A stretch of 64,000 nucleotides of DNA, from the NCBI GenBank assembly GCA_950097015.1, contig CATNEN010000033.1:620001-684000 (forward strand), read 5' to 3'. Below the pieces are notes generated by a model that worked only from the letters and a program-made list of their open reading frames with translations, was not told where the DNA came from and searched no databases. The position numbers and the translations under genes are program-made. The first letter of the stretch is position 1; each line of letters begins with the position of its first letter. Below are positions 5,154 through 35,800 of this stretch, piece by piece. Source of the DNA: Macrostomum hystrix. Lineage: Eukaryota; Animalia; Platyhelminthes.

Positions 5154-5196
5154 AGTTGCAATAATTCAGGCTAATAGCATTTTTCAACCTATATTC

Positions 5197-8610: not shown

Positions 8611-8619
8611 GTTTCTGGG

Positions 8620-11528: not shown

Positions 11529-11564
11529 TATCCACTATACTAAAAATGAAATGCTTGGTTGGTT

Positions 11565-12050
11565 GGTTGGTTGGTTGGTTGTAATTGATTTTCTCCCGAA
11601 CGGCTCAACCGATTTTCACCATTTCTTCACCAAAAGATGCTAAATATGGGGACAATTATACACGTATTTTTATTAAGCTTAACTTTCTTGCTAAAGGGAT
11701 TAAATATTCGAAAAACATGATTTTTTCAAAGGTCAAACCATCTTGGCCTATTGAGAATTTTACTCACTGCCACTGAATTAGAATTGCGTCGTCAAATTGC
11801 GCAACAACCCCTAGCTGATTGAATTTGAAGCCTGCACTCTGGAGACAAATTTGAAATAAATGTACACAACCAACCGCGAGACTGAGTGTACTCTATTTTC
11901 TCACTTTGTTGTACAAAGCCAGAACTTCCCCAGTTATTCATTTTCTTTTTATATTCATTCATTCATTTTATAAGGCTGATTTTTGCACCCACTAACCAAC
12001 AGTCGGAATAGCCGATGTGGAGGCACTAGGAATAAGTTAGGCTAGGCTAG
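11565..12050 (+). mobile_element. Possible non-autonomous Helitron/Helentron-like repeat
   Basis: (TTGG)n followed by CTCCCGAACGGCTCAACCGATTTTCACC, resembling cores of such elements; ends not verified. Confidence 0.3.
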
Positions 12051-12194
12051 GGTTCGATTCTGCACTGCGTCAAATCATTTAGACTAATTTTCTGCCAGTA
12101 GTGATTGAAGATTATTTTAATTTATTTTTATCATTTCGTAAATAAAATATCATTAACCATAGAAAATCTGAGTTTGAATCATTGCAAAAACAGC

Positions 12195-12515
12195 GTCTGA
12201 ACCATGGCTAACCCAGCGTTTGAATCATGGCTAAACCAGAGTTTGAATCATGGCTAAACTGGAGTCTGAATCATGGCTAAACCATAGTCTGAATCATGGC
12301 TAAACCAGAGAATGAATCATGGCAAAACTGGAGTCTGAATCATGGCTAAACCATAGTCTGAATCATGGCTAAACCAGATCTTGAATCATGGCTAAACCAG
12401 AGCTTGAATCATGGCTAAACCAGAGCTTGAATCAAGGCTAAACCAGCGTTTGAATCATGGCTAAACCAGAGTTTGAATCATGGCTAAACCAGAGTTTGAA
12501 ACATGGCTAAACCAG
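12195..12515. repeat. ~20-bp minisatellite TGAATCATGGCTAAACCAGA(G/C)T
   Basis: Direct tandem copies visible. Confidence 0.9.
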
Positions 12516-13372
12516 AACTGGGGGATAATCGTCAACTGGGGAATCATAGTAAACTGGGGGATAATTGTCAACTGGAGGATAATTGTACACTGGGGAATCA
12601 TCATCAAATGGGGGATCATGGTCAACTGGGGATCATCATCAATTGGGAGTTATCATCAAATGGGGGATCACAGTCAACTGAGAGATAATTGTCGACTGGT
12701 GGATCATTGTCAACTGGGGGATCATTGTCAACTTGGGGATCATTGTCATTGTCAACTGGGATCATCATCAATTGGGAGTCATCATCAAATGGGGGATCAT
12801 AGTCAACTGAGAGATAATTGTCGACTGGGGGATCATTGTCAACCGGGGGATCATTGTCAACTGGGGGATCATTGACAACTGGGGGAACATTGTCAACTGG
12901 GGGATCATTGTCAACTGCGTGATCATCATCAACTGGGGGATCATTGTCAACTGGGTGATCATTATCAACTGGGGGATCATTGTCAACTGGGGGATCATTG
13001 ACAACTGGGGGAACATTCACAACTGGGGGATCATTGTCAACTGGGGGATCATTTTCAACTGGGGGATCATCATCAACTGGGGGATCATTGTCAACTGGGG
13101 GATCATTGTCAACTGGGGGATCATTGTCAACTGTGGGAACATTGTCAACTGGGGGAACATTGTCAACTGGGGATCATCATCAATAGGGAGTCATCATTAA
13201 CTGGGGGATCATTGTCAACTGCGTGACCATCATCAATGGGGGGATTATTGTCAACTTAGGGATCATTATCAACTGGGGGATCATTGTCAACTGGGGGATC
13301 ATTGTCAACTGGGGGATCATTGTCAACTCGGGGATCATTATCAACTGGGGGATCATTGTCAACTGATCATTG
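12515..13372. repeat. 18-bp minisatellite GGGGGATCATTGTCAACT
   Basis: Dozens of tandem copies; explains the spurious repetitive ORFs. Confidence 0.95.
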
Positions 13373-13459
13373 TAGCGCAAAAAAGGCTGAAAATACAGCT
13401 GCTAAAAAGTATATACTGGACGAATTAAAAATATATTTCTGCTCCCCGAAGGGGGGCAA

Positions 13460-14006
13460 AACTTGCTAGTACATTTACTAAAAACCGACTATTGCGTGGA
13501 AACATTTGCTGAGCTAGATGCTCAACTGATGCGCGATCTCGAAACCTTCGAGTTAGGCAAATATAACTAGCTGATAAACTTCACGTACGCGCCTCAGGAT
13601 CTGATCGATTAAAGAGGTTCTGACAAATATAAAGACACGTGAGTGCTGTATGATGGGCATGCTTTGTAAACAGGCTAGTAAACTCAGCAGACTTTGTCAC
13701 TTCACTTTGCAGGTCATCAACGACAACTAAATCGTTTGGCTTAAACCGAGAAGCAAGTTGAGCTGGAAATCCGTTTACGAAATGAACAGGTTCATCTCCA
13801 GGTTTATTCTAGCACTTGATTATCCGTTGCTGATCGTCGGAAGTTAGGTTTGTACAATGACACCAAAGAAGACGCTGAGGTTTCTTATCAAATAGCTTAT
13901 CTCGTTCACTTAGCAATCTAAGTGTCCATCCAGTTTTTCCGGAGTTAGATGGGCCCGCAATAATGAATGTTGAATCGTGAGCCAACTGCATGTTGAAAAT
14001 TTCCAT
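13460..14006 (-). pseudogene. Polinton packaging ATPase B (second, distinct copy; truncated)
   Basis: AGPSNSGKT, then after a frameshift LVVVDDLQ, LFTKHAHH, ICQNLF, RDRASVEHLAQQMFP; one in-frame stop. Confidence 0.85.
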
Positions 14007-14008
14007 TT

Positions 14009-14425
14009 CTAAGCACCAAAGCGTTGCTTCACCTGCATAACTTTAGCTACAAGTTTGGCAGCTAGTTTCTCCCTCCAACTTGTGGACGGATCGTTAGCAA
14101 TTTCATGTGCTCCTGATTCTAGCACCTGATCAGCCTTTAATCTTTCTTGAACGTCAGAATGTTGGTCGTACGCTATGTCGTGAAGCATGCACAGATTATC
14201 AAGTCTATTTTTACCTCGTTGACCCTTTGTAAGTCTCTCTTGTAACTTCGTTCCTGGACCGCAAAACTGATATCCGCCAGGTAAATGTGCCTCAAACGGA
14301 AAATGGTTGATTAAACAGTTCAGTACGCCGAAACCTCGCTGCTTCTTAATCGAGTTACTTGATCTCTTGATTTTAAATGAAGACTTTCCTAAACTCTTAG
14401 CTGATATTTTCTTACTACGTGCCAT
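14009..14425 (-). CDS. Parvovirus VP1u-like phospholipase A2-domain protein of Polinton remnant B
   Basis: HLPGGYQFCGPGT Ca-loop-like motif and catalytic HDIAY; basic N-terminus; adjacent to the ATPase. Confidence 0.85.
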   Translation of the reverse strand: MARSKKISAKSLGKSSFKIKRSSNSIKKQRGFGVLNCLINHFPFEAHLPGGYQFCGPGTKLQERLTKGQRGKNRLDNLCMLHDIAYDQHSDVQERLKADQVLESGAHEIANDPSTSWREKLAAKLVAKVMQVKQRFGA

Positions 14426-15815
14426 TCTGGAGATTTTTAATTACCAGCAAATTGCGAATTTGCTTATAGTGTATTTACAAAAAACGAGATTAACATCAAT
14501 AAAATTCCTCGCATAAAAAGTCTAGACAAGGGTTGCATCTGAGTCTTCAGTGGTGCTCATCATTAGGACTGGTTTTGGTGTTGACGTAGCTCCTTGAAGT
14601 GGCGTCATTGAAATTGATTGTACTTGTCCATTGTTTGTCTTTAGAGTCGAAAAATTGGTTCTATAAGTTAAATATGGAGTATTATTTAATCTAAACAGTT
14701 TATTAGTCAATTTTATACAGCAGAAGCATTTATTAAACCAATACTTACATAGCTCCTGCTTGACCTTCTTCTAAAATACAAGTTGAAGCATTATATCGAA
14801 CACGACGAATCTTGATTAAAATTGATCCTAAAGCTAGTAAATAGCTGTCATCAAAAAGATGAATGCAAGCTTGATAGAGTCCAGTGATTGCTGAACTAAA
14901 ACTAATCCACTAACAAGGTTGCTGATAGATTGACTATTTTGCTGTGTAATCTGTGCGTGGGCTGTCATCAAATTACTTAAAACTAAACTTTGAGCTTGAG
15001 ATGACATTTTGAAAAATTATCTAAAATGATACCGAAACTAATATCTTAAGCTTGCTATGTGTGCTTAAAGCCTACCTGTTCACGATAAACGTACCGACCG
15101 AAAACTGAAAACGAAAAAGTTGTAAATTAAAAATGTTATTTTCAACTAGTATATCAAACATTTATCGTCAACTATCGTCAATATGGTGCTATTCGCACCA
15201 TATTGTTTAATGGTGCGAATATGCTTGATCAGTGTGGTTTAGTTCATTAAAAAAATTATTTTGTAAACTAAGTTCGAAGTTCTCCCTCGCACACATCGTT
15301 CTCGCTAACTTAGTAAAATATCATTCAACTATGTTACTGAAAACCCACAAGCTTCTTTAAGGCAGTACGTGTATTTTAATTAAACCTTTAAGGTCAAGAA
15401 AATCTAGCAAATTTTTATACAGTTAATTTTTTTCACTTGTGATGTTTACCGAATGATGAAATTCAATAATAAAATCTCTACCTATGCAATCAAATCTTAT
15501 CATTGCTACGTAACGTCAAAATTGCTTTCAATTGTTGAATCAAATTACATTTTAACCTGTAGCAAATTAAATTCGTTTCCACATAAAAAGCATCGTGCAG
15601 TTGCTATCAGCAGATGAGCTTCAACAGTTGACTATAATTACCTTAATGACTATGTCTTGTAAACAAATTAGTTTGATTTCTATCATAAAAGCATCGTGCA
15701 GTTACTATCAGCAGGTGAATTGTGTTCGATTCGCTTCTATAAATACAAGTTTCAAAATTTTGGTCTTTTCATGAGCTCCTCGGCTTTCTAATCACTACAC
15801 CAGCTAGCAGCAAAA

Positions 15816-16114: not shown

Positions 16115-16399
16115 GTGAGTATAATTATTTGTTTTACATTTCCTCAGCTTGTATTTGTCAATAGTAACCTACCTCACAGTTCATATAGCCAAATTGTAGA
16201 GCCTAAACAGTAGAACTTAAAGACACAAAAGCTCGTCCTCAACTGGGTCTTATATGCAATTTTTCTATATATAGTATTACGCATTCAATCGAATGTATAT
16301 GCAAAGTGTCAAAGTATTGATTAATAAAATTCATTTATAGGTGTTATCGCGAAAAAAATATAACGACTTCTAAACAGAAAGTAAATACAGTATTTTAGC

Positions 16400-16620
16400 G
16401 AAAAGACTGATATGTTCTAAAAACGAAGGTAAGAGCAGTATTTTTGCAAAAGTTATTGAAGTAGTGTGCATGGCTACATCTTATGGTATTTTCGCGAAAA
16501 TACTGATATGATATTAAACAAAGGTAGTTGGTGGTATTTTTGCAAAAGTTATTGAAGTAATGTGCATGGCTACATCAATTATGCAGTATTTTCGTGAAAA
16601 TACATGCATATTATTAGACG
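16400..16620. repeat. Short palindromic array (about 2 units)
   Basis: GGTATTTTCGCGAAAATAC and GGTATTTTTGCAAAAGT units as in 23.5-24.3 kb. Confidence 0.8.
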
Positions 16621-17062
16621 AAGTATCTTGTACCTTTATAACCATAGACACATTTAGTATTTCCGCAAATTGCCAAGAGTCATGAGTGTATTTTTTCGCG
16701 AAAAGACTTTATACTGTTGTCTATTGTATTGAATACTTGTGAATGAAAAATAATGACAGTTTTTGCAAAAATACTAACGATACGATGATGAATATATTTT
16801 TGCGAAAAAATTTAACATGTTCTTAAACAAATACAAACTGCTGTATTTGTGCGAAAGTGCTTTGAGTACTAAAATACAAACAATAATGCTTAACATAGTA
16901 CTGATGATTGTTGGTGATGGTATTTTCGCGAAAAGATTATAGTGTATTTTCAATCATTTACAACACAACACCAATATGTACATATCAAATAGTATTGATA
17001 ATCAGAAGCTTTATAAAATCACTGTAATTAATCATAGTGAATGTATTTTTTATAATATCATT

Positions 17063-18505: not shown

Positions 18506-19178
18506 TGCTATGTTGGCAAATAATTGTCGCAGAATTTCTTCATCAAACGGCAGACTGTACATATAATGCTACCCAGACTGGTGTTGAATATATAAGTGTT
18601 AAAGTAAAAACTGCTAGTGAAGTGAAGTAGCACTGGAATACGATTTAAATCCAATCAAAGTGGAATTTCTTAGCAGTATCTATTCTAGCATGTACTATAA
18701 TCCTATGTTGGCAAATAATTGTCGCAGAGTTTCTTCATCAAACGGCAGACTGTACATATAATGCTACGCAGACTGGTGTTGAATATAGAAGTGTTGAAAT
18801 AAAAAATATATAAAAATATAAAAAAGAAAAAAAGCAAATTGTTCGTTATAGTTTTCACAATACATAACTTCTTATCTTGGTTATTTATTTTATCATTAGA
18901 ATAATATGAACTGACTGGTAGTTATGTGGTGTACATTGGCGTTGAGACTTACTAGAAGACCGACGTAATATTAATCGATCAGTCTGATATATAATATCAA
19001 GCTAAGTTTATACAAGTTTGTCTGTAGTAAAACCTAGAACTACAGTTGAGTACAGTCGCAAAAGTGAGCTATGTAAGACTGAGCGCGCTTAACATCTACT
19101 TTGTGACCGACTGACTGACCGACCGAGCGATCAACCACATTTACGAGTTAATTCCTACGCCTCGACTTCAAGTTTGAA

Positions 19179-19448
19179 ATGTCAGCATTTCGTGGCCGTG
19201 GAAAGAAGGCTCGTGTGGATGCCAGCATTGCTACATCGGATTCTAATGGTCTACGCCAGACTAGGATCGTGGACTACTTTAGATCTGAGCAGTCAACCGA
19301 TCGTCCTACTGGCAACTCAATTAGACCGAGTGGGCAAGCAGCATCGGCATCATTCGCAGCACTGGCAGGAACGGCTGGCCGGGCATCGGCTGCCTTCAAT
19401 GTTCCCCGCCGTGCAGTAATACAGCAGCAACAGCAACCGCAGCAGCAT

Positions 19449-19487
<39 letters not shown>

Positions 19488-22400
19488 ACTGTTATTAAAA
19501 CCGCAGTTCAGAAGCGTCGACGTGTCCGATCGACTCTACGCAAGCGGACGCGTGTAGTTGTCGACTTGGATGCTTCGTCTAGCACTACATCGTCGTCTGA
19601 TGCTGAAGACACTGGCGTTGGATCTTTGGTAGCCATGCGACAGCCTCTGGTTATTGCCGCACAATCAATTGGTGGCGCCGGCGACCATGCTAATCGCATA
19701 GAGTCCACGCCTAAAGTGCTATCATCTGAAGATGACTCAGCGGACGACTTGCTAGCAGACGACGTACAGCTGGAGATTGTGGACGAGTGGACGAGCAATA
19801 CAGACAATGTAGAGTCGAATACTGCCCCTGTTTTGACGGCTTCTAATAGTTCAGCCTTGTCATCGCAGCTAGTCGATGATAAGTACAAAACAGAGGTGGC
19901 AGAATTATTGCGCGTAAATGGCGAGTCGACTATTCCTAAAAATAGTGCCGCACTTGGTGCCTGTCCGACTTCGCCAGATTATGCGCCTCGCTCTACACCG
20001 GCAATGTCTGTCATCGAGAATGGGACAACATCCGATGCTGATGAACCAGTTCGCGCTGTATTCTCTCCAGCGTATGTCGACGCTTCTCAACCAAAAGCGC
20101 AACAGTCGGGACGACTGCAGCAATCGCAGCAGCAGCAGCAGCAGCAGCATCAACAGCGAGAGCAACAACCGCAGCAACAGCCGCAGCAGCAGCAGTGGCG
20201 GCAGCAGCTGCTGCAGCAGATACAAGGGCGTGAACGGCAGCAGCAAGATGATGGCGTGGCATTTGCTCCGATAGCCGATGAATATGCGTTGTGTCGTTCG
20301 ACATCACCACTTCTACGGCTATGTCCTCGAGCTCCAATTACCGACTACGCCTCTTTAACAGCAGAGGGCAGGTCGGTTCTTATGACTAGAAGGACGCTAC
20401 ATCTTATAGAGATTGCATTCATCTCGAGCGATGTGGAAAAATTCAAGGCGTTTCTAGAAGATGAATTGGTAGCTCCATGTGCACAGTTTGCCATCGGCGC
20501 AACATCATGTATTCAGGTTGACATGCTGACCAGCGAAGAAATCCGAGCGCGTCGTCAGCAGAAATACAACATGTCAATCCGTGAATGTTTAGGAGCTCCG
20601 AATCATCCCAATGGTTTGCTGATGTTCCTGAACCTGCGCCAACCAGAAGATGGTTACACTGTTTACTGCGGACTGCATGCCCTTTTGATGGAATCTGCGG
20701 AAGCTTCGGCCTACCTGCATCCTACAATGTGTAGAATGACAGTGTCTGGTGTACGCAGTGCGTCAAGTGCAATTAAGCTAGTTACCAGTACGGACGAGTT
20801 TCCAGCTCTTTTCCGCGTTTCTACTCAAGAGTGCAGCTTGCTGACCAAGGCCTTTTGCTGGGTTGCTGCTCATGAGACGTCATCTACTGAGCCTTTGCTA
20901 GATAGTGGCTTCATGTTCGAACACTTTCGTGTCAGACAAGAGCTCAGCGATTACTTTAAGGTGACTCAGATGAAACGCGTAATAGCAACAGAGGTGCTAG
21001 CTGGTTGCCAAAACTGTCGCCCTACTGCCGCTGCCGCCGCCGCCGCTGCTGATGATGCTGCAACAGCCGACTATGCGAGGACGACCTTGCCTACTCAGCT
21101 GGAGGTATGCAAAATATTATAATACATGACATTTTTTAGCACACGTACGAGTATTGATCATTGAATTTTTGCTGTTGTTTTAATTCAAATAATTATTACT
21201 TTTGGACAATTAATTAATTAATTGTATGCGAACCTACCTAACAACACAACAGGTCTCTGCTGCTGCTGCTGATGTTGCTGCTTCCGCTGCTACTGCTGTT
21301 CAAGTATTTGATGCCGCCGTCGCTCATGTTCCCCGGCTGATCGCCGCCGCCACCAACGTGTGCCCAACTGTAAAGGCTGTGTGCAGCGCGTTGCAATTGC
21401 CAACTGGTGTCGTCTATCTATACGGCCCGTCTGGCGTTGGGAAGACACACTCTGTGCACAGTTTGCCATCGGCGCAACATCATGTATTCAGGTTGACATG
21501 CTGACCAGCGAAGAAATCCGAGCGCGTCGTCAGCAGAAATACAACATGTCAATCCGTGAATGTTTAGGAGCTCCGAATCATCCCAATGGTTTGCTGATGT
21601 TCCTGAACCTGCGCCAACCAGAAGATGGTTACACTGTTTACTGCGGACTGCATGCCCTTTTGATGGAATCTGCGGAAGCTTCGGCCTACCTGCATCCTAC
21701 AATGTGTAGAATGACAGTGTCTGGTGTACGCAGTGCGTCAAGTGCAATTAAGCTAGTTACCAGTACGGACGAGTTTCCAGCTCTTTTCCGCGTTTCTACT
21801 CAAGAGTGCAGCTTGCTGACCAAGGCCTTTTGCTGGGTTGCTGCTCATGAGACGTCATCTACTGAGCCTTTGCTAGATAGTGGCTTCATGTTCGAACACT
21901 TTCGTGTCAGACAAGAGCTCAGCGATTACTTTAAGGTGACTCAGATGAAACGCGTAATAGCAACAGAGGTGCTAGCTGGTTGCCAAAACTGTCGCCCTAC
22001 TGCCGCTGCCGCCGCCGCCGCTGCTGATGATGCTGCAACAGCCGACTATGCGAGGACGACCTTGCCTACTCAGCTGGAGGTATGCAAAATATTATAATAC
22101 ATGACATTTTTTAGCACACGTACGAGTATTGATCATTGAATTTTTGCTGTTGTTTTAATTCAAATAATTATTACTTTTGGACAATTAATTAATTAATTGT
22201 ATGCGAACCTACCTAACAACACAACAGGTCTCTGCTGCTGCTGCTGATGTTGCTGCTTCCGCTGCTACTGCTGTTCAAGTATTTGATGCCGCCGTCGCTC
22301 ATGTTCCCCGGCTGATCGCCGCCGCCACCAACGTGTGCCCAACTGAACTGTAAAGGCTGTGTGCAGCGCGTTGCAATTGCCAACTGGTGTCGTCTATCTA

Positions 22401-22877
22401 TACGGCCCGTCTGGCGTTGGGAAGACACACTCTGTGCAAAGCCATCTCGGTTCTACGAAAGTGCTGAATATCCAGGTGCAGAAGCGGTCTAACACGTTTA
22501 TGTTTGACAAGCTCTGCGAGACTATACACACTGCCATGTTTATTGACGAGCTACGCCCGCAACTGTTTGATGACACATCTGAAGTCATGTGCACACTACT
22601 TCGTTTGGTCAATGGAGACACTTTTGAAGTCAATGCTAAATACAAGGCTATTCGACACGTCTCTTGGCTCAATCGACTGTTAGTGCTTGCTGGGCATGCT
22701 CCGGTCAGTGCGTATTCGATGGACTTTCAGCGCCGATTAGAACCGACACCTGATGGGCACAAGCGTCCGGTAGTTGCCATCTTCATTGGTCATTCCCTCA
22801 GTACCGACTACCAATGCGATGGACAATGCCACCCAATACGCAATGTGTTTGGCGATCACCCGGACCGGCGAGTATGA
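19179..22877 (+). pseudogene. Rep-like/SF3 helicase paralog 1, disrupted by a ~975-bp internal tandem duplication
   Basis: Intron 21105..21252; 20478-21452 repeated with TGTGCA at the junctions; 5-nt insertion near 22345. Confidence 0.85.
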
Positions 22878-23479
22878 GCGACAAGACGGTGCTGTTAGCA
22901 GGTTTTTTTTACACCAAACTGCCTGCATGCTGCTATTTTATCGACTATATTTTTACTCGGTCATTCAGTCAGTCTTTCAGCTGTTTTTTTATATTTTTTA
23001 CTGTTTCATTCTGTTTTTGTATGCAATTTTATAATTAGTCATACAAATAAAATCAATTTATATGCTCAGTTTTGAGCTTTTATTGTTGTAAAGTAGGTAA
23101 TTGCTACTTCTGTTGCAAAAAATCATATTTCTTGCTAATTGTAGTCAATTGACTGATTAATGAAGCCCAACACGAATACAATAAATGTATTGAGCGTTTG
23201 CATGCATAAAAATACAAACAATAGTTACGATAATCAGTAGATTTATAATATAACTGCATAATGAATCATAGTGATTGTATTATTTTACATTCTGACGTTA
23301 TGACGCCTCTGCTTCCTTCAGCTGTGGCATACAAAAGCTCGTCCTCAACTGGGTCTTATGTGCAATTTTTCTATATATAGTATTACTATCTTCAAACGAA
23401 GGTATATGCAAAGTGTCAAAGTATTGATTAATAAAATTCATTTATAGGTGTTATCGCGAAAAAAAAACGACTTCTAAAC

Positions 23480-24320
23480 CGAAAGTAAATACTGAATTTT
23501 AGCGAAAAGACTGATATGTTCTCAAAACGAAGGTAAGAGCAGTATTTTTGCAAAAGTTCTTAAAGTAGGTGTGTGCGTGGCTACATGGTATGGTATTTTC
23601 GCGAAAATACTGCTATGCTATTAAACAAAGGTAGTTGGCGGTATTTTTGCAAAAGTTATTAAAGTAGGTAGTGGTGTGCATGGCTACATATTATGGTATT
23701 TTCGCGAAAATACTGCTATGCTATTAAACAAAGGTAGTTGGCGGTATTTTTGCAAAAGTTCTTAAAGTAGTGTGCATGGCTACATATTATGGTATTTTCG
23801 CGAAAATACTGCTATCCTATTAAACGCAGGTAGTAAAGGTAGTTTGCGGTATTTTTGCAAAAGTTATTAAAGTAGTGTGCATGGTTACATCTTTAGGTAT
23901 TTTCGCGAAAATACTGCTATGCTATTAAACAAAGGTAGTTGGCGGTATTTTTGCAAAAGTTATTAAAGTAGGTTATATGCGTGGCTATATGTTAAGGTAT
24001 TTTCGCGAAAATACTGCTATGCTATTAAACAAAGGTAGTTGGCGGTATTTTTGCAAAAGTTATTAAAGTAGGTTATATGCGTGGCTATATCTTATGGTAT
24101 TTTCGCGAAAATACTGCTATGCTATTAAACAAAGGTAGTTGGCTGTATTTTTTGCAAAAGTTCTTGAAGTTGTATGCGTGGCTATATCTTAAGGTATTTT
24201 CGCGAAAATACTGCTATGCTATTAAACAAAGGTAGTTGGCGGTATTTTTGCAAAAGTTATTAAAGTAGGTTATATGCGTGGCTATATCTTAAGGTATTTT
24301 CGCGAAAATACATGCATATT
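23480..24320. repeat. Tandem array of ~100-bp units, each with palindromes GTATTTTCGCGAAAATAC and TTTTGCAAAA
   Basis: 8 perfect cores counted between 23593 and 24310, plus a degenerate lead unit. Confidence 0.95.
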
Positions 24321-24798
24321 ATTAGACTAAGTATCTTGTACATTTTTAACCATAGACACATTTAGTATTTCTGCAAATTGCCAAGAGTCATGAGTGCATT
24401 TTTTTCGCGAAAAGACTATATACTATCTATATATTGTATTGAATACCTGTGAATGAAAAATAATGACAGTTTTTTTGCAAAAATACTAACGATACGATGA
24501 TGAACATATTTTTGCGAAAGAACATGTTCTAAAACAAATACAAACTGCTGTATTTATGCGAAATTGCTTTGAGTATTAAAATAATATGAACGTTTACAAA
24601 CAAAAAAAATAGAAACAATAATGCTTACGTTTGTGCTTATGATTGTTGGTGATGGTATTTTCACGAAAATATTAGTGTATTTTCAATGACTAACAAAACA
24701 ACACCAATATGTATATCAAATCGTTATGATAATCAGAGGCTTTATTTATAAAATAACTGTAATGAATCATAGTTTCTGCATTATTTTATAATATAATT

Positions 24799-25638
24799 TC
24801 AAACGTATGCCTCCGCCTCTTCAGCTGCGGCATACAATAGGCAGTCGTCAGCTGGGTCAAATAAACAGCTACTGGCTGCCATCGCTGCCGCTGATGCTGA
24901 CGCCTCCGCCTCTTCAGCTGCGGCATACAAAAGCTCGTCATCAGCTGGGTCAAACAAGCAGCTACTGGCTGCCATCGCTGCCGCTGCTGCTGACGCCTCC
25001 GCCTCTTCAGCTGCGGCATACAATAGGCAGTCGTCAGCTGGGTCAAATAAACAGCTACTGGCTGCCATCGCTGCCGCTGCTGCTGACGCCTCCGCCTCTT
25101 CAGCTGCGGCATACAAAAGCTCGTCATCAGCTGGGTCAAATAAACAGCTACTGGCTGTCATCGCTGCCGCTGCTGCTGACGCCTCCGCCTCTTCAGCTGC
25201 GGCATACAAAAGCTCGTCATCAGCTGGGTCAAATAAGCAGCTACTGGCTGCCATCGCTGCCGCTGCTGCTGACGCCTCCGCCTCTTCAGCTGCTGCATAC
25301 AAAAGCTCGTCATCAGCTGGGTCAAACAAGCAGCTACTGGCTGCCATCGCTGCCGCTGCTGCTGACGCCTCCGCCTCTTCAGCTGCTGCATACAAAAGCT
25401 CGTCATCAGCTGGGTCAAAGCAATTGGCTGCCATCGCCGCTTCGACCTCTTCAGCTACGGCGTATAACAAATGGTCGTCTGCCAGGCCGAATACAAAACT
25501 GTATGTTGAATTGTATGTTTCATCATACCCGTAGTCATCATAGCCTGGCTCTTCATTCAGCTCAACGTCATCGTCGTGACAGTTGGATTTTTCCGCATCG
25601 TTTAGAGTTGGCCCTGATGATGATGTTGATGTAGGCAT
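24799..25638 (-). CDS. Acidic repeat protein AR (279 aa; seven 31-aa DPADDELLYAAAEEAE units)
   Basis: 93-nt period; ATG preceded by a TTTAAATA box; second copy at 61305. Confidence 0.75.
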   Translation of the reverse strand: MPTSTSSSGPTLNDAEKSNCHDDDVELNEEPGYDDYGYDETYNSTYSFVFGLADDHLLYAVAEEVEAAMAANCFDPADDELLYAAAEEAEASAAAAAMAASSCLFDPADDELLYAAAEEAEASAAAAAMAASSCLFDPADDELLYAAAEEAEASAAAAAMTASSCLFDPADDELLYAAAEEAEASAAAAAMAASSCLFDPADDCLLYAAAEEAEASAAAAAMAASSCLFDPADDELLYAAAEEAEASASAAAMAASSCLFDPADDCLLYAAAEEAEAYV

Positions 25639-25872
25639 GGCGAGACAATGGGGGCAGTATTTAAAATGCTTAACTTGTTTAATTTACTTAATTAATTGTC
25701 CAAAGTTTCAACTGCATTGATTACATATTCCCAATCACATAAGATTATCAGCAAGCTTGTTACCATAGACTAGCAATAGGGTTTTTAGTTGGTTACTTTA
25801 CTAAGGTAAGTGGCGTAACTTATTTACACATTTTAGATTCTTAATTATTGTTTCAAATAAAAAAACTACAAC

Positions 25873-26841: not shown

Positions 26842-27222
26842 TCATTGTTCGATGTACCAGTAGCGAACTCCATGTATGATGAGCTGGAGTTCAGCTTGGG
26901 CTTCCTCTAAAAGCTCTAGCACTTCGATGATGTCTTGTGCTTCATCGTCTCTTACACCAGTCACGGACAAGACAGCCTGATAGTCTTCTGCTGACCGGTG
27001 CTTTTGCAGCCATTGTTGAGTGCGCCGTAATAATAAACATAAGTCATTAGCGTTGTACTCTGCATTTGGAACACCGCGTTGCAAACTAGGTAGCTGCTCG
27101 AAGCACCCTCGATGCGCTATGAACCGGCCAATGCAATCTATGCGACAGCTGAGAAAGAGTTGAAATACGCGCGGCTGAAGATACATTTGTACTAACTGCA
27201 TCTGATCGGCAATTAACGACAT
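26842..27222 (-). CDS. S1 protein (126 aa, unknown function)
   Basis: Five copies, three intact; homologous to S1b. Confidence 0.75.
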   Translation of the reverse strand: MSLIADQMQLVQMYLQPRVFQLFLSCRIDCIGRFIAHRGCFEQLPSLQRGVPNAEYNANDLCLLLRRTQQWLQKHRSAEDYQAVLSVTGVRDDEAQDIIEVLELLEEAQAELQLIIHGVRYWYIEQ

Positions 27223-27434
27223 GTTCAGTCAGTTAGTAAATCAAGTAAAGCAAAAAATCAAAACCCCCATAGAGAATATTTTATCGAACACAGGTGAGTC
27301 AGTCCACAGACAAATCAAATGAATACAGGCCAGTCTGGGTATTAAGAACAAGCAATATCTTATCGGCCAAGAAATCAGCCCACAACCAAACTTCGCACGT
27401 CTGCTACAGTAACAGTCACTAAGTCAGCAAGCAA

Positions 27435-29598: not shown

Positions 29599-31077
29599 TC
29601 AATTGCCGCACAGACATTGTCGCGTCTTGATCAATCGGCCGTGTCTTGACACTGTCGTAGTCAATATATTGTGTGTGCATATACAATACGAGCGTCTAGA
29701 TGCATGCAAAGCATCAGTCGCAGGTATAGTCGATTGCGATGACTGCACATCACTTATTGACATTGCGACATCGTCGTCAAGGTCGGCGGTCAGAACCAAT
29801 TCTGCTGCGGCATCGGCATCTCCTTGCGGCACTGTCACATCAGATAACTGTTCATCCGAATCGTTGTTGACATCAGCAATGATGATCTCCATTGCGACAT
29901 CAAACATATCATCGATGTGACTTGCTTCGGAATGGGCAGCGAAATCCGATCCAGCAGCAGCAGCAACACAATCCGTATTGGTAGACAGAAATTGCATAGC
30001 GGCAGGTTGCATCAAGTCGAGCAGAATCTGCGCCATTTCAATGTCATCACCGTGACCGGATGATGTACCAATACACACTGACTGCGTGCTGACATTGGCT
30101 TCGATTGAAACATCGGTCACACCGTTTTGTGCACTGACACCAACTGTCGCTGTTGTTACTCTTGGCGCACAGACAAGAATAAAAACAGGTAGCGGCACCG
30201 GAACGAAATACGGCACCTCGACAGTTGGAATCGGCAACATAGGCATCGCTGGTGATCCGATTGGCTCAATTTGCAACATTGGCATTGATGGCGATGGTAC
30301 TGGCGAGTGATCCGATTGGATTGTTTCTGCTGCTGCTTCAATCGCATTGTGATTAAGCGGAGTAGATGTACAAATTGGATGCCGTACTGATCCAATTGAC
30401 ACGCTGTCCGCTTGGCTCACATGTTCAGCAGGCTCGTCAGTACTTGTTGCATAGATGATGCCTGATTCAGCTGCGCTATCTTCTATGATGATAGTTTCTG
30501 CTGGCTGCTCTGCTGATGGCTGCTCTGCTGCTGGCTGCTCTGCTGCTGGCTGCTCTGCTACGGGCTGCTCTGCTACTGGCTGCTCTGCTGCTGGCTGCTC
30601 TGCTGCTGGCAGTCGACGGGCAATGTAGCGCTCGTGCATATAGTCGACAATCTCGCCGACCACAGCTGGTAGTGGATCCAGTTGTTCAAGCTGGACCACT
30701 TCGCCCATTGCCGCTGCTCCCGCCACTGCCACTGGCTGAGCTGGTTGGCCACCGACGCGACGCTGCGGATTCCGCTTACATCTATATAGATGATGCAACA
30801 TGTTGGACGTTATTTTGTTGCAATGCGGACACGCTAGCACACGTCCACCGGCAGCGACATCCACACCAGCCCGCTGTAGTTGCAGCATCTTCCAGACGGC
30901 ACTTCCACGCTCCTTAACCGACGCGAATAGCGATGGCCTTTGACCAACAGGTAGGACTGTCCAGTCAAATTCGTCATGGACAGCTTTATGCGCCTCTATA
31001 AAATGTCTTCGCATCATATTGGCGCGGATTTGCTGGCCGCAGAAATGGCAGAAGCGGAGTCCGTTGTTGTCTTCCAT
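29599..31077 (-). CDS. Zinc-finger protein Z1 (492 aa): C2H2 plus C2HC fingers, AEQP repeats, acidic tail
   Basis: CHFC-x11-H-x4-H and CPHC...HHLYRC; N-terminus homologous to 35886 gene. Confidence 0.8.
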   Translation of the reverse strand: MEDNNGLRFCHFCGQQIRANMMRRHFIEAHKAVHDEFDWTVLPVGQRPSLFASVKERGSAVWKMLQLQRAGVDVAAGGRVLACPHCNKITSNMLHHLYRCKRNPQRRVGGQPAQPVAVAGAAAMGEVVQLEQLDPLPAVVGEIVDYMHERYIARRLPAAEQPAAEQPVAEQPVAEQPAAEQPAAEQPSAEQPAETIIIEDSAAESGIIYATSTDEPAEHVSQADSVSIGSVRHPICTSTPLNHNAIEAAAETIQSDHSPVPSPSMPMLQIEPIGSPAMPMLPIPTVEVPYFVPVPLPVFILVCAPRVTTATVGVSAQNGVTDVSIEANVSTQSVCIGTSSGHGDDIEMAQILLDLMQPAAMQFLSTNTDCVAAAAGSDFAAHSEASHIDDMFDVAMEIIIADVNNDSDEQLSDVTVPQGDADAAAELVLTADLDDDVAMSISDVQSSQSTIPATDALHASRRSYCICTHNILTTTVSRHGRLIKTRQCLCGN

Positions 31078-31269
31078 TGCAGCTTAAATATAGTCGTTCG
31101 CTGGCTAGCCTGCTGAATAATCGACAGAGTGGTCGTTGTGGCTGAATTTTAATTATCGATTTGCGTGCGCGCGCGCATATATTTACCTAGCACTGCTCAT
31201 ATCCTGTACAGAGCAGCAGTCAGACACATAGACATAGACAGGCATCGTCAACTGGGTCTAAGCTATTTC

Positions 31270-31585
31270 CATATATAGTATTTTCGCGAAAATACTGATA
31301 TGCTCTATAAACAAAGGTAAGGGCAGTATTTTTGCAAAAGTTCTTGAAGTAGTGTGCATGGCTACATCTTATGGTATTTTCGCGAAAATACTGCTATGCT
31401 ATTAAACAAAGGTAGTTGGCGGTATTTTTGCAAAAGTTCTTAAAGTAGTGTGCATGATTACATCTTTGGTATTTTCGCGAAAAGACTGCTATGCTATTAA
31501 ACAAAGGTAGTTGACGGTATTTTTGCGAAAATTCTTAATGTAGTGTGCATGGCTACATCTTATGGTATTATCGCGAATGCAGATA
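31270..31585. repeat. Palindromic array (3 full units plus 1 degenerate) upstream of Z1
   Basis: Same ~97-bp unit. Confidence 0.9.
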
Positions 31586-31876
31586 CGCGGCGGTTGAAGA
31601 CAATAAGAAGACAATATTTTTGCGAAAGTACTTTAAGTATTCATGATGACTATATCTAATGGTAATCAATAACCAAATATGACTTGACTTCATTATATTT
31701 TATTATTATTCATGCCGCGAATACAACTTGCAACAGGTTCACTCATGTATTTTTGCTTGAGCGAATTAATTGGGTTAAATAAATAGCTGGCATTAATTAA
31801 ACGGCGAACAGAAAACTACAATTAGCTGTATTAAGTCTACCTAAAACTAGTGCTGCTACTGCTGCTGCTGCTGCTG

Positions 31877-32282
31877 TTACTGCTCAATTCGATATCGGCG
31901 GCTCCGGAGCAACTCTCGCAGTCTAGCCCTTTGCTGTACGCCGCGCCAGTAGTCCAGGCCGTGTAGAATGTGCTGCAGCTCCAAACATGTGTCCTCCAGC
32001 AGGCCTAGCAGCTCGGCCAAGTCGAAGGCCTCGTTCTCTGTTAGGCAGGTCACCTCAAGGATGGTCTCGTAGCCCGCAGCTGTCTTGTGTTGTAGCAGCC
32101 AGTCCAGGAGGCTCTTCATCAGGGTGTGCAGCTGGGTGACGTTCAGCTAAGCAGTCGGGCAGTGGCGCTGCAGGCAGGTTAGCTGCTCCAATCGTCCTCG
32201 GTAAGTCAGGAACGGGGCCAGACAGGCGATGTCGCATCTGGCCAGGAGTGCCACGGTGGCCGGCGAGCCGAACAGCGCCACA
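31877..32282 (-). pseudogene. S1b copy, 5'-truncated, with internal TAG
   Basis: Matches 49964..50383; GAG>TAG at 32147-32149. Confidence 0.8.
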
Positions 32283-32284
32283 AG

Positions 32285-32440
32285 GTTCTTAAAGTAGTGT
32301 GCATGGCTACATCTTATGATATTTTCGCGAAAATACTGCTATGCTATTACCGTAAACAAAGGTAGTTAGCTGTATTTTTGCAAAAGTTATTAAAGTAAGT
32401 AGTGTGCATGGCTACATATTATGGTATTTTCGCGAACGTA
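32285..32440. repeat. Short palindromic array
   Basis: Two CGCG and two TGCA cores. Confidence 0.8.
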
Positions 32441-32835
32441 GATACGTATTCTCAGACAAAGTGACTTGTACTTTCTTACCATCGACAAATTTAGTATATT
32501 TCTGCTAATTGTCAATAATCACGAATGATTTTTTCGTGTATCTGTGGCTTTTAAGAAAACGAGAATAGTTTAATCTCAGTTTAATCAGATGATAATCAAA
32601 TGATTTCATTTGTTAATTTATTTATTTACTAACGAAATAATCACAGTGTTGACAATCATTAGCATCTTAACAATATATAAGAGAGCAACAAACAGAACAT
32701 ATGAGATTCTCGGTTGTAAAGGGACGGGTATTAGTGGGGGTATCACAATTGACACAATTGATAATTGATAATTTTGGCAAATCAGACAATCAGCACATAT
32801 AAAGTCAGGTGACACGACTGGGACAATATGAGCAT

Positions 32836-35800
32836 TCAGATGTCCAGTCTAGTTCTCGAACTGATCAGGCGCCCAGATCGCGTCCTGTATTCCGTTCGAC
32901 GAACCATGAGTAGCTCAGAATCCGAGCTGGTCTCATTGTCATTGCTGACGTGCTGTTGTTCACCATCATCACCTTCTTCGTCGATATCGTCGTGAACGTT
33001 GCCTTGTCCAGCCGATGCTCCAAACATCGGCGGTTGACTAAGACTGCGTCGTCTAGACGATGTAGACGAAATAGGCGATGGTGTTGCTGAATCGATGGCC
33101 GGCTTTGTCGACTCGGTGTTGTCCGTTGTTGAACATCTAGGACTAACCGTAGCGGGTCGCATTGTCGACATTCGAGGTCGCTTCTTGTCAGTGGCCTTGC
33201 AAATGGACGACCGTCGAGTGCGTCGCTTGCGTGTGCGTTGACTATGTGGCATCACAATGTCATCAGCAGGTAGAGGAGATGCAGCCGATGAATTGGTTGC
33301 GTCCAGATCAACGCTACAGGCGGCAGAGCGACGACGATTCGTGTCGTTTTCGGCTGTTGGATGTCGTTGATGTCGACGATCAAGTGGCCGATTGTGACAG
33401 AATGTCTCGAAGCATCCTCTGACGTCGTCGGCGACCATCAGATTGGCCTGCTGTTTGGCCAGGCGTCCATACGCATTGACGACACAGTTGCGCGATGTGT
33501 CGTACAGTGGCACCAGCTGGTCTAGCTTGTCGGGATGCGCATGCACATATGCCGACAGTACATTTCGACGACCATCGCCCATGCGATAGGGCCGATCGAT
33601 GACCAACTCGGCGCCCTGCTTGACAAGCGTGCTGAAACTTGTCGAGTCACGCTGCTTGCCACGATGCGTAGGAAACAGCAGACATTTGCCTGGCCTGACA
33701 TGGATGTTGCACTCGGCGAAGTATGGCAATAGAAAGTTGTCTATCCATTGCAGTAGACATTCGCCGACTTTGCGTGGCGCAGTCCAGCTTGCACCTTTAC
33801 CACGACCGCCCTTTTTGTGTGCCACTTCGGTAGGCGGCAGGACTGTGACAATGGTGGAGGACGTTGATACGCCGCTATTGAGTGCAGCATCCAAATAGCA
33901 ACGCCGAATCGCGACCCATGGACGTAGTCGATTGGCATGGACAATTGCTGCACAGAAGAAGGCCAGTTCACGCGTGATCGGCATAATAAATGTATTCCAT
34001 TTGCCGACGACGTTGGCCATTCGACGTGCACATTGTCCAATGCGACCCCAGTAGCCCTTCACGGGTAGATGAGACCACGAATGTTTGGCGACCATATCAA
34101 TCAGGCAGTCTAGCCGGTTGTGAATGATGCGCCATTCGTCAGCGGTCAGGAACTTATCCGTGTAGGACAGCTGGCGTTCGTCATCGCGCAGGTGATAAAT
34201 ATTCTCTTGCCGTTGACGAATCAATCCAATGCAAGCCTGTACATGTTAAAGGGTTATGAAAGAGAAAGTACATGCAGTAGCTTCTACAATTGTTCGTGAT
34301 ATATCAACTAACATAGTATACAATATGCGACACAACAACACTGCTCACCATGATTGATTCGATGCGGCTAGTCAACAGACCAGATACTGCAGTCTGATGA
34401 TAGAGAATACCATCTTTGCGCGGGTCAGGACAGGCAGGCAATTCTGACGCGGCCTTGACAATGTCGGCATGCACGTTGGCAAACAATCCATCTGGTGGCG
34501 AGGTCAATTGGAACGCGTTCATAACACTAGGAGCACCGAAGTCGTTGTTGGCTGCTAGAAACTTCTTCGCGCCGCTCAATATGTTATGAAGCTCGTTCAT
34601 TCGCTGTCCAACAGTCGATGGTTTCCAGATATGGCGCTTCACCATCTCGTCCAAATCGAATTGGATGCGCGCTGGATTGATGAACCACATCTCGACTGTG
34701 ACATTGATTGCGTGTAGGAGACGACTAGTTGTAGCATGATAGTTCCGCTGGATTGCTTTCCTACGGCTAACATGCGATGCGTTCTCTTCTACACAGCAAT
34801 GACCCTTGAACCAGATGTCGCCGACATTGTCTAGTTGCTTGTACATGTGTTCAGATGCAACGTGGTAGTCTGGGCCGTCGAAAACAACAAGCCGAGACGT
34901 CTTGTGCCTCCGTTGCAATACAAGCTCCTCTTCACTGACAGAAGCATCAGTATTTTCCACGTCAGATTTAGAGGTCTGAGTCTCTGCTTGTCGCTGACTG
35001 ACAGCATTGGTGACTCCGACCGGAACATAGTCTGACGTATACTGGAGAATTGCTTCTGTCAGATTGACCAGATTCTGCAAGCTAGTACACACGCGCGGAT
35101 GCTCAGCGTTGTGGGCTTTCTGCAGAATCTCGTTGAGGCCGGCCGCATTCAGACGCAGTCCATTGATAAACTCTGTTTGACAGGAAAGTTATAAATATTT
35201 GTTGATTATTTTTTATGTCTTTACGTGTAAATTAAAAAATGTAAAGGCATGTACAACAATATTTTAGACCACTTACTGATCGCTGCCACATTGTCGTTGA
35301 CATTAATGAACTCCGGCATCGTACTCGTTTCGTTTTGCAGTCGCTCGATGTCGTGACTGACAATATCGGCCGTGAACGAAGATGGTCCGGCCCGATCGAA
35401 ACTCGCCAACACCGGTGCTACTGACAGTGAGCATTGATCTGACTGAGAAGTAGCTTTGGACTGTCCTGCAGAAGACGATCCCGCAGAAGACGCTAACACG
35501 ACAATAGGCAGCTCAATGTTTGCACCCGCGTCTATCAAATCAGACGAAGAGTCGTCGCTGTCACTTGACGAACGGGTTGCATTTGCTACCTCTGTAATTG
35601 CCGGTTTACGCTTGCATGACCTGGCAATGTGTTTAGTGAGATGCCGAACACCTTTGCCACAGTATTGACAATAAGGCGAATCTGGATTGGATCCATCCCG
35701 ACGTAACCGGATGATATTCCATACAGTTTTCGCCTTAATGTGATACGATGCAGTCGCTGCGGGTCGTCCAACCTCCGGAATTGTGCTCCAATCAAAACTC

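Follow-up and report, generated by a model that had tools for sequence, protein, structure and literature searches.

A dispersed 18-bp palindrome in a repeated flatworm gene cluster: putative binding sites for a cluster-encoded protein

The locus raises the question of what many copies of one short palindrome do in the spacers of a repeated gene cluster of the flatworm Macrostomum hystrix. The window, meaning the whole stretch of 64,000 nucleotides that was analysed (contig CATNEN010000033.1, positions 620,001 to 684,000), contains the cluster as a repeated, head-to-tail mosaic at ~16-64 kb, plus a fragment from position 1 to 0.7 kb. Its genes encode a CRESS-Rep/NS1-like SF3 ATPase, two C2H2-type zinc-finger ORFs, an acidic-repeat ORF and a putative 'tyrosine recombinase' ('YR'). 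The original prediction had likened the palindromes to baculovirus homologous regions (hrs), and the architecture it described was found: dispersed arrays of palindrome units, with solo copies, in the non-coding spacers of one repeated gene cluster.

The 18-base palindrome GTATTTTCGCGAAAATAC gave 38 matches at up to 2 mismatches, 16 of them perfect, where 100 shuffles of the 64-kb window gave an expectation of 0.00. Its 12-mer core TTTTCGCGAAAA matched 59 times at up to 1 mismatch (0.22 expected in the 64-kb window), and about 35 of these matches lay outside the regular arrays as solo or degenerate TTTYGCRAAA cores. A second motif, the imperfectly palindromic TATTTTTGCAAAAGT, was matched 28 times versus 0.02 expected, always on the plus strand (28/28). 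Because it is present in each ~100-bp unit, the unit is a dimer whose ~50-bp half-units differ in their core, CGCG in one and TGCA in the other. Unit length was 95-100 bp across the arrays, and orientation was the same in all copies. The centre of the 173 TTTnnnnAAA words was CGCG in 39, TGCA in 29, TGCG in 11 and CGCA in 5; the core centre varies almost only as YGCR, and the symmetry class is thereby kept. CpG observed/expected was 1.0, so the retention of CGCG needs no selection. No RNA family was matched in Rfam and no tRNA was found.

Arrays were called with Tandem Repeats Finder, and array E (32283-32441) was read directly; with 38 motif matches against 0 expected, these calls confirm the predicted 18-bp palindrome in ~100-bp tandem arrays with solo variants. 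Five arrays were obtained, with ~8, ~8, ~3, ~2 and ~1.5 units. The coordinates first proposed, 23480-24320, are right for the regular array of module A, and the motif-bearing module is wider, at ~23451-24672 on the plus strand, with degenerate leading units (23451-23592), regular units (23593-24311) and solo cores at 24399, 24469 and 24655. Tandem Repeats Finder placed this array at 23542-24311 (period 100, 7.7 copies, 89% matches), and each of the 8 regular ~100-bp units has a perfect 18-bp palindrome. Module B (60039-61183, plus strand) has 8 units at 60136-60861 (Tandem Repeats Finder 60085-60861, period 100/200, ~7.8 units) and solo cores at 60949, 61019 and 61166; five of its 8 palindromes are perfect and three have one mismatch, and the flanking sequences are paralogous between modules A and B. 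Module C (16344-16937, plus strand) is a short version with 2.2 units (Tandem Repeats Finder 16389-16603, period 96, 2.2 copies) and solo cores at 16690, 16797 and 16920. Left and right flanks are common to modules A, B and C. Array D (31274-31577, plus strand; 3.2 units with a period of 95 bp by Tandem Repeats Finder) lies 200-500 bp upstream of the minus-strand zinc-finger ORF 29599-31083. Array E (plus strand, about 1.5 units) lies just 3' of the minus-strand 'YR' ORF, and a 0.7-kb G+C-rich segment (31615-32282) separates it from array D.

The remaining copies are smaller groups, also on the plus strand. Units and solo cores at the window start (492-687) lie within a fragment paralogous to 30786-31348. 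Solo or degenerate cores at 36229, 36276, 36329, 36725 and 37245 (36229-37262) occupy the spacer upstream of the minus-strand ZnF/'YR' ORF series, and two clusters of solo or degenerate units (38118-38256 and 39115-39851) stand on either side of a second copy of the G+C-rich segment (38374-39029). Solo cores at 55916, 55937, 56742 and 56815 (55916-56826) lie upstream of helicase copy B, the last of them ~170 bp before the first ATG of its ORF, and two copies of the motif (54534 and 54848) are found in repeats on the 3' side of the divergent G+C-rich helicase gene. Stop-to-stop ORFs of at least 150 aa hold 3 of the 59 core matches and make up 28578 of the 64000 positions (45%). Of 123 matches to the 10-mer family, 114 have positions above 16 kb; of the other 9, 5 belong to the cluster fragment in the window's first 2 kb. 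Nearly all palindrome copies are restricted to the cluster spacers, near-exclusively outside ORFs. Module A lies between the 3' ends of the convergent helicase and acidic genes, the largest arrays are so placed, and both 8-unit arrays are directly 3' of a helicase gene.

Helicase copy A (19152-22877, plus strand) is built like copy B and carries a 1-kb internal tandem duplication (20478-21458 and 21453-22438, 99.5% identical). Copy B (56958-59700, plus strand) has a polyQ-rich N-terminus, a conserved middle domain and an SF3-type ATPase, and is split into two ORFs (56958-58925 and 59017-59700) by a break in a low-complexity linker. In the divergent G+C-rich paralogue (52783-53928, plus strand), middle domain and ATPase share one ORF; its identity is 70% with M. 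lignano PAA62424.1 and, over 166 aa, 43% with copy B. Since all helicase genes in the window are interrupted, these copies may be dead. Among 1.84 billion protein representatives the ATPase family had no more than 5 relatives, and those that are named came from Macrostomum lignano. Pfam gave PF00910 (E = 0.004-0.016) and DUF5906 (E = 0.02), both below curated cut-offs, and a PDB profile search with the helicase alignment gave generic P-loop matches only.

The predicted Rep-like character of the helicase was supported for the ATPase and not for the N-terminal domain. The ATPase domain model had a pLDDT of about 80, and in the viral fold library BFVD all 24 named proteins among the 50 matches listed were Rep or NS1. 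Foldseek matches in the PDB included PCV2 Rep, Vientovirus Rep, E1 and AAV Rep68, with Lon and other AAA+ proteins ranking equally, and the ESM-Atlas neighbours were CRESS Rep clusters (0.92-0.95, 194-209 shared features). The middle domain, the supposed 'Rep-like' part, was modelled at a pLDDT of 35.9 (below 50 in the first model as well), and its residues 380-640 gave no protein-search match. No HUH (His-hydrophobic-His/Gln) or YxxK motif was conserved between the A+T-rich and G+C-rich helicase lineages, whose sole common motif was RRxLH[LV][IF][EH]I.

The other cluster genes are on the minus strand. The acidic ORF (24799-25683), with 31-aa (93-bp) repeats, is convergent with the helicase gene and has a second copy at 61305-62123. 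The zinc-finger ORF (29599-31083) has two N-terminal CxxC...H...H/C fingers and a partial second copy at 48466-49701. Three consecutive ORFs at 32836-35976 comprise a zinc-finger domain (35221-35976) paralogous to that ORF, a middle part (34304-35188) and the 'YR' part (32836-34245). Zinc fingers had been predicted for the element, and two paralogous C2H2-type zinc-finger ORFs are indeed present; the 'YR' identity found no such backing. The 'YR' ORF had no Pfam match at E ≤ 10, none in PHROGs or the PDB and no homologue in the protein collection, its residues 1-290 gave no protein-search match, and its R...K...R...Y pattern is readable by eye only. The sole lead was a weak Atlas match to one cluster with PF00589 on 17% of its members (0.94, 130 shared features). 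Searches of 9 ORFs against PHROGs and of P0001, P0002 and the 'YR' ORF against PDB sequences returned nothing, Pfam scans of 30 and then 11 ORFs showed no baculovirus or other large-virus gene in the window, and no terminal inverted repeats or element ends were found. Coverage in sequencing run X5 (kind unknown) extended to the helicase and acidic ORFs and not to the array; no inference is drawn from this.

Conservation of the cores was assessed at several levels. In paralogous alignments outside the regular arrays, motif positions were 95.8% identical (622/649) and other positions 91.6% (29499/32211; Fisher p = 3e-5), a comparison made on non-independent pairs and BLAST-seeded alignments. Within the regular arrays (21 units aligned), the palindrome was no better conserved than most of the unit, as is expected of young, concertedly evolving repeats. 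Solo cores keep a ~50-70-bp spacing in diverged spacers whose linker sequence has changed, to about 75-80% identity around the regularly spaced cores. Non-motif blocks of the array flanks are conserved too. Among 40 listed of 66 cross-organism substitutions, 1 fell in the four 12-mer cores where ~3.5 were expected, a comparison of low power. Together these sequence comparisons offer modest evidence for extra constraint on the cores.

Contigs under two different organism labels (A and B) contained both the helicase gene and array units. For organism A, word depth in array bins versus the helicase gene was 118-442 versus 15 in X1 and 5134-15357 versus 844 in X2, a ratio of 6-29 in contig depth, which is not copy number; the window, with its ~24 units to 2-3 helicase genes, has a ratio of similar magnitude. 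For organism B the array bins had 11-14 and the helicase gene 28-33 (again contig depth, not copy number), with array/helicase ratios between less than 1 and about 2. These depths give no indication of a vast separate satellite. As far as they can show, the palindrome unit does not look like a common satellite unlinked to the element, the case that was to refute the prediction. The palindrome pattern had 0 matches in viral contigs and the alternating CGCG/TGCA pattern 0 in metagenome contigs; none of 289 pattern matches in metagenome contigs was confirmed as a P0005 relative, and 0 of 9 in viral contigs as a relative of the G+C-rich helicase.

We tentatively favour the reading that a dimeric protein encoded by the element binds the arrays and cores as multimerised sites, which would act as an origin or enhancer, and give this reading somewhat less than an even chance. 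The cores would be bound by a protein, for which their perfect two-fold symmetry suggests a dimer; the candidates are the two zinc-finger proteins and the middle domain of the helicase. Binding would then load the SF3-type helicase, as at an origin, or drive transcription, as at an enhancer. This reading draws on the motif excess, its non-coding placement and restriction to the cluster, the solo-core spacing, the core identity and the YGCR centres. It also draws on the plausible binders that the cluster encodes, the co-occurrence of helicase and units in two organisms and the depth ratio of organism A. Against it count the uniform conservation of units within arrays, the conserved non-motif flank blocks, the depth in organism B, the CpG ratio, the interrupted helicases, and a middle domain that has neither HUH nor YxxK and no usable model. 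If one function must be picked, we favour origin-type, helicase-loading sites over an enhancer, because both 8-unit arrays directly follow a helicase gene and because palindromic sites are where SF3 initiators, for example papillomavirus E1 and SV40 large T antigen, assemble. The largest arrays are not promoter-like, since they lie between convergent 3' ends.

Known systems resemble the arrays in part. Baculovirus hrs are bound by a dimer of IE-1, and hr/dr repeats also occur in other large insect and crustacean dsDNA viruses. Like hrs, the arrays are dispersed, intergenic and A+T-rich, with 1-8 tandem palindrome-centred units (~70-100 bp), single copies and variable unit number. Unlike hrs, they are carried by a chromosomal head-to-tail mosaic gene cluster of an animal genome in which Pfam found no large-virus gene, the palindrome is perfect and only 18 bp long, each unit alternates two core types, and cis activity is putative. 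The EBV oriP repeats and the papillomavirus E2 sites and E1 palindrome are sites for dimeric viral proteins, and an 18-bp palindrome has the size of an EBNA1 or E1 site. Such clusters of short palindromic sites by an SF3-type or host-loaded origin are what is predicted here; unlike in those viruses, no EBNA1-, E1- or E2-like DNA-binding domain was recognised, any episome is hypothetical, and the ATPase resembles CRESS Rep/NS1 and not E1 specifically.

CRESS-DNA virus and pCRESS origins consist of iterons and a nonanucleotide hairpin nicked by Rep. The likeness here is that the nearest recognisable relatives of the ATPase are CRESS Reps and that repeated, putative sites adjoin a rep-like gene. 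The sequence TAGTATTAC, which we take to be the circovirus/nanovirus nonanucleotide, occurs at 16272, 23378 and 59970, the left edge of three array modules; the three matches are paralogous and therefore count as one event versus 0.52 expected. A CRESS-type hairpin origin was rejected: TAGTATTAC is not in a stable hairpin and folds no better than shuffles (z -0.83 to +1.21). Also unlike CRESS systems, HUH and YxxK are not conserved, the palindromes sit in 100-bp units and not in short direct iterons, and the locus spans tens of kilobases in a double-stranded chromosome. Some DNA transposons have subterminal transposase-binding repeats, for example the 12-bp TnpA motifs of En/Spm-CACTA. The arrays share with these many clustered copies of a short motif in non-coding parts and a predicted element-encoded binder, and differ in having no terminal inverted repeats and motif clusters that are internal, between most genes and all in one direction.

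A more specific version is unlikely: the arrays would be origin or maintenance cis sites of an undescribed animal mobile or episome-derived element, integrated as head-to-tail concatemers in flatworm chromosomes and encoding a helicase that has no nuclease motifs, zinc-finger proteins and a divergent tyrosine recombinase. Its CRESS-Rep-like SF3 helicase, having lost the nuclease motifs, would bind a double-stranded origin, as the polyoma- and papillomavirus proteins do. The recognisable catalytic domain of a Crypton-type tyrosine-recombinase element was not found in the 'YR' ORF. None of the papers listed for TTTCGCGAAA concerned such an element, and none matching it appeared in titles and abstracts on Macrostomum transposons or tyrosine recombinases, on EVE, Rep or CRESS in Macrostomum, or on an SF3 helicase with a tyrosine recombinase in eukaryotic transposons. 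Replitrons have no helicase and are reported from plants, algae and protists (PMC10288648). Should the palindromes prove to be binding sites, they would offer a way to identify the DNA-binding protein and to learn how a very rare gene family is replicated or expressed. That family unites a Rep/NS1-type helicase with chromosomal, multi-gene, multi-copy animal DNA, and so bears on the recruitment of small-DNA-virus replication modules by larger elements.

The strongest rival, which we consider possible but doubtful, is a neutral internal minisatellite, in which a ~50-bp palindrome-bearing sequence doubled to a 100-bp dimer, was amplified by slippage or unequal exchange and spread by segmental duplications, leaving solo cores as decayed units. 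Unit number does change rapidly between cluster copies otherwise 96-99% identical, conservation is uniform over the units and not confined to the palindrome, CpG decay pressure is absent, and internal tandem repeats are common in mobile elements. The 16-64 kb region is moreover a mosaic of head-to-tail partial duplications, with several block ends in or beside arrays (1-561/30786-31348, 16225-16623/23331-23733 and 31615-32282/38374-39029). Decay alone fits less well with the regular core spacing that persists between diverged linkers and with core centres that remain within YGCR; the motif is also found in spacers not obviously unit-derived (36.2-37.3 kb and 56.7-56.8 kb) and twice in the repeats behind the G+C-rich helicase gene. 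If neutral, the arrays would be an ordinary minisatellite that also promotes rearrangement of a repeat-rich locus.

The same block ends could point to recombination, with the palindromes as core or accessory sites of the putative tyrosine recombinase, or the arrays as homologous-exchange substrates that reshuffle gene modules. Units flank the G+C-rich gene segment on both sides in two copies, one ORF (40358-41263) is a chimera of the acidic gene (5' end) and the 'YR' ORF (3' part), and all units share one orientation. We nevertheless regard this as quite improbable: the junctions fall at no fixed unit position and resemble diverged sequence and not sharp crossovers, copy-number differences by themselves would already produce HSP ends inside tandem arrays, the 'YR' identity is without tool support, and typical recombinase core sites are longer than these 18-bp perfect palindromes. 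Integron-like cassettes separated by palindromic sites were dropped, the junctions being diverged sequence and not fixed crossover points.

Least probable of all are enhancers for an E2F-like or other dimeric host factor giving cell-cycle or germline expression: motif clusters do lie 170-500 bp upstream of the zinc-finger ORF and helicase copy B, as well as upstream of the ZnF/'YR' ORFs, and TTTCGCG is like an E2F half-site, but the largest arrays stand between convergent 3' ends, a palindromic E2F site has a 6-bp G+C core versus 4 bp here, and with almost no copies outside the cluster the motif is not a general promoter element in those 16 kb of the window. By eye, TTTCGCGA differs at the last base from what we take to be the E2F consensus, TTTSGCGC; CGCGAAA had been likened to the yeast SCB. 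An intron or insertion in the acidic gene was also rejected as an account of the array, since copy B is without the left duplicate and the bracketing repeat is thus not a target-site duplication. Module A itself is bracketed by a ~130-bp direct duplication of the acidic gene's 3' end.

Direct reading identified 23480-24320 as a regular tandem array. The 18-bp perfect palindrome GTATTTTCGCGAAAATAC matched 38 times in the whole window at two or fewer mismatches (16 matches were perfect), versus none in 100 shuffles. Tandem Repeats Finder (TRF) delimited arrays at 23542-24311 (100 bp × 7.7), 60085-60861 (~7.8 units), 31274-31577 (95 bp × 3.2) and 16389-16603 (96 bp × 2.2); a partial array of 1.5 units lies at 32283-32440. 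On these counts and arrays, the tandem palindromes placed at 23480-24320 by the original prediction were correctly described and located. The 12-mer core TTTTCGCGAAAA matched 59 times in the window at one or fewer mismatches (0.22 expected), and ~35 of these matches were outside regular arrays.

Each ~100-bp unit carries two motifs, its CGCG palindrome and, ~50 bp away, TATTTTTGCAAAAGT, which has the likewise palindromic core TTTTGCAAAA. Because of this spacing and a weak 48-bp period also detected by TRF, the unit is a dimer derived from an older repeat of ~50 bp. The flanks of TATTTTTGCAAAAGT are asymmetric and 28 of 28 matches were on the + strand; therefore all arrays and solo copies in the window run in a single direction. 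The centres of TTTnnnnAAA words (n = 173) were CGCG in 39 cases, TGCA in 29, TGCG in 11 and CGCA in 5, giving the consensus TTTYGCRAAA. When 21 units were aligned, the palindrome was almost invariant, as was most of the unit, and the variable segment was directly 3' of the TGCA motif. The flanks of the two 8-unit arrays are 96-99% identical, but the order and number of unit subtypes differ between them, so the arrays evolve faster than their surroundings. As a single strand the palindrome folds weakly (-3.4 kcal/mol).

Self-comparison resolved ~16-64 kb into a mosaic, with a single gene cluster repeated head to tail in partly deleted copies. Helicase copies A (19152-22877, +) and B (56958-59700, +) each have a polyQ-rich N-terminus, a conserved middle domain and a P-loop ATPase. 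A G+C-rich helicase paralogue (52783-53928, +) is 43% identical to these A+T-rich copies over 166 aa, and 27% identical in alignment with the middle domain. All three are interrupted, copies A and B by a stop and a frame change within a low-complexity linker whose length differs among sequencing runs, and the G+C-rich copy by a stop just 5' of the ORF. Copy A also contains a 1-kb internal tandem duplication (20478-22438, 99.5% identical) that repeats the middle domain. The other members are an acidic ORF with 31-aa repeats (24799-25683 and 61305-62123, both -), a zinc-finger ORF (29599-31083, -) and a three-ORF series (32836-35976, -), the N-terminal part of which has a paralogous zinc-finger domain (31/96 residues identical, E = 4e-15).

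Rearranged copies were also observed. The region 49800-54000 is a divergent, G+C-rich (55-63%) version of the cluster, in which the small ORF (49907-50383, +) shares 45% identity with 26842-27228 (-). The segment holding this small ORF recurs, ~93% identical and in opposite orientation, between palindrome arrays at 31615-32282 and 38374-39101. The ORF at 40358-41263 (-) is chimeric: its first 17 residues match the beginning of the acidic-repeat ORF and the remainder matches the C-terminal part of the ORF at 32836-34245, marking a junction where cluster copies were joined by deletion or recombination. The array module at 23451-24672 is bracketed by ~130 bp from the 3' end of the acidic-repeat gene, duplicated in direct orientation (23225-23365 and 24715-24860); the left duplicate is absent from copy B.

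Only 3 of the 59 core matches fell inside stop-to-stop ORFs of at least 150 aa, which span 28578 of the 64000 positions. A degenerate 10-mer family had 123 matches in the window, nine of them in the first 16 kb and five of those nine in the first 2 kb. A fragment at the window start is paralogous to 30786-31348, and 0.7-16.2 kb contains repeats of other kinds (a Tc1-like element, fragments of LTR retroelements and two satellites of short period). The helicase gene and the acidic ORF converge, and both 8-unit arrays occupy the interval between their 3' ends; the zinc-finger ORF at 29599-31083 has the 31274-31577 array 200-500 bp upstream. The spacer upstream of the three-ORF series (32836-35976) is filled with solo cores, which also occur 170-240 bp upstream of helicase copy B; cores beyond the regular arrays are spaced ~50-70 bp apart, with diverged linker sequence. 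The arrays are a dispersed family of oriented, non-coding, fast-evolving repeats that carry the palindrome and are linked to a single gene cluster.

Pfam matches to the helicase ATPase were all sub-threshold (RNA_helicase PF00910, E = 0.004-0.016; DUF5906, 0.02; generic AAA families). A model built from a 7-sequence alignment had a pLDDT of ~80 over residues 210-366. Foldseek against the PDB returned AAA+ proteins (Lon, HslU) in about the same measure as SF3 helicases, the latter including Vientovirus Rep, papillomavirus E1, the PCV2 Rep ATPase (target TM 0.63) and AAV Rep68. Among 50 listed matches to predicted viral structures, all 24 that were named were Rep, replication-associated or parvovirus NS1 proteins, and the ESM-Atlas neighbours were CRESS-DNA-virus Rep clusters (scores 0.92-0.95, 194-209 shared features). 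Assignment of the ATPase as SF3, Rep/NS1-like, is moderately supported. HMMER found five relatives of the ATPase part among 1.84 billion representatives; both taxon-labelled ones were from Macrostomum lignano, one being 70% identical to the G+C-rich copy. These homologues make a Macrostomum-like flatworm the probable source of the window. This rare, putatively Rep/NS1-like helicase gene cluster is a more interesting object than the arrays it carries.

Two further protein identities were not upheld. The middle domain, originally called Rep-like, had no homologue beyond the family in a protein search, gave no folded structure in modelling, and had neither an HUH nor a YxxK motif in common across the two helicase lineages. 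The ORF at 32836-34245 (-), proposed to be a tyrosine recombinase, found no support in Pfam, PHROGs, the PDB or the protein collection, a weak Atlas match being the sole lead.

A perfectly symmetric 10-18-bp core, multimerised and also retained singly, usually marks the sites of a dimeric DNA-binding protein, which makes the palindromes candidates for such sites. The reading we favour, tentatively, is that the arrays are binding sites of an element-encoded protein, with an hr-like origin or enhancer role. Candidate binders from the cluster would be the two zinc-finger proteins and the helicase middle domain; within this reading, helicase loading would be the preferred role, since each of the two large arrays lies beside the helicase gene.

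That the units are instead a neutral minisatellite is somewhat less likely. Constraint on the core was assessed in several comparisons. In paralogous alignments of 70-94% identity, with regular arrays excluded, core positions were 95.8% identical (622/649) versus 91.6% elsewhere (29499/32211; Fisher p = 3e-5); because the pairs are non-independent and BLAST seeding favours exact words, this extra conservation is suggestive only. Among the short spacer-only alignments listed, cores were roughly 94% identical versus 84% elsewhere. A five-way alignment of the right flanks showed cores retained in the most diverged copy, together with other blocks. Between organisms, one of the 40 substitutions listed (66 in total) fell in the four strong cores (48 of 551 nt), versus ~3.5 expected, which is not significant. 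The CpG observed/expected ratio was 1.0, so CGCG retention calls for no particular explanation. Downstream of the divergent G+C-rich helicase gene, a ~310-bp repeat has a core-like word at two positions (54534, 54848), a thin hint that the core may be conserved across lineages. Recombination sites or hot spots are an improbable reading of the same palindromes, and a host-factor enhancer a slightly less probable one still.

Linkage to the element was compared with an independent satellite through word depth in eight sequencing runs, as contigs, matching parts of 56800-63700. In organism A, one of two differently labelled contig sources, depth in array bins was 118-442 versus ~15 for the helicase gene in run X1, and 5134-15357 versus ~844 in run X2. 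The resulting ratio of 6-29, a contig depth and not a copy number, is of the same order as in the window (~24 units per 2-3 helicase genes), which argues weakly against a vast independent satellite. In organism B (run X4), helicase depth was 28-33 and array bins were at 11-14, with a local value of 59 at the last palindrome; this organism also has units, but fewer align. Some contigs run from arrays into sequence unmatched by 56800-63700, and the units therefore have other contexts in the genome.

As dispersed, non-coding palindrome arrays in cluster spacers, these repeats justify the hr-like label in architecture. Their layout resembles baculovirus hrs and the clusters of EBNA1, E2 and E1 sites in episomal viruses, but they fall outside those systems, since Pfam found none of the corresponding virus genes among the window's ORFs. 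They are best filed as element-linked palindromic repeat arrays. The motif TAGTATTAC, the nonanucleotide of circovirus and nanovirus origins, occurs at 16272, 23378 and 59970 (+), on the left margin of three array modules, each of which lies, or once lay, after the helicase gene. A CRESS-type origin finds no support, since the three sites are paralogous and count as one event (0.52 expected), folding gave no stable hairpin around any of them, and nuclease motifs are absent. Replitrons, which are the other Rep elements of eukaryotes, carry no helicase, and none is reported in animals (PMC10288648). The open-access titles and abstracts searched described neither this motif nor an element of this kind.

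Several neighbouring repeats were recorded. An apparently complete Tc1/mariner-type element (2791-4440) has an ORF (3073-4218, -) with DDE_3 and HTH domains and is flanked by 157-nt inverted repeats (2791-2947 and 4284-4440, 98% complementary). An LTR-retroelement fragment (8945-11429, -) encodes gag and aspartic protease (9582-11429) and, in another frame, RT and RNase H (8945-9646). Two adjacent satellites at 12170-13365 (23 bp × 15 and 18 bp × 47 copies) have no relation to the palindrome units. A tRNA-like sequence with the T-arm motif GGTTCGAATCC, inverted, occurs at 36466-36618 and at 56109-56261 plus 56389-56463, the second site within a 269-bp × 1.9 repeat; neither ARAGORN nor Rfam called it, and it may be a tRNA-derived SINE. 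A ~140-bp CCACACC-type (C1-3A-like) microsatellite lies within the locus at 55044-55182. Two copies each of a ~35-nt AAATACACTACGGAGATCAAAAAAAGGTCATTCG-like motif are present at 37196-37320, near the A+T-rich cluster, and at 54180-54270, near the G+C-rich cluster.
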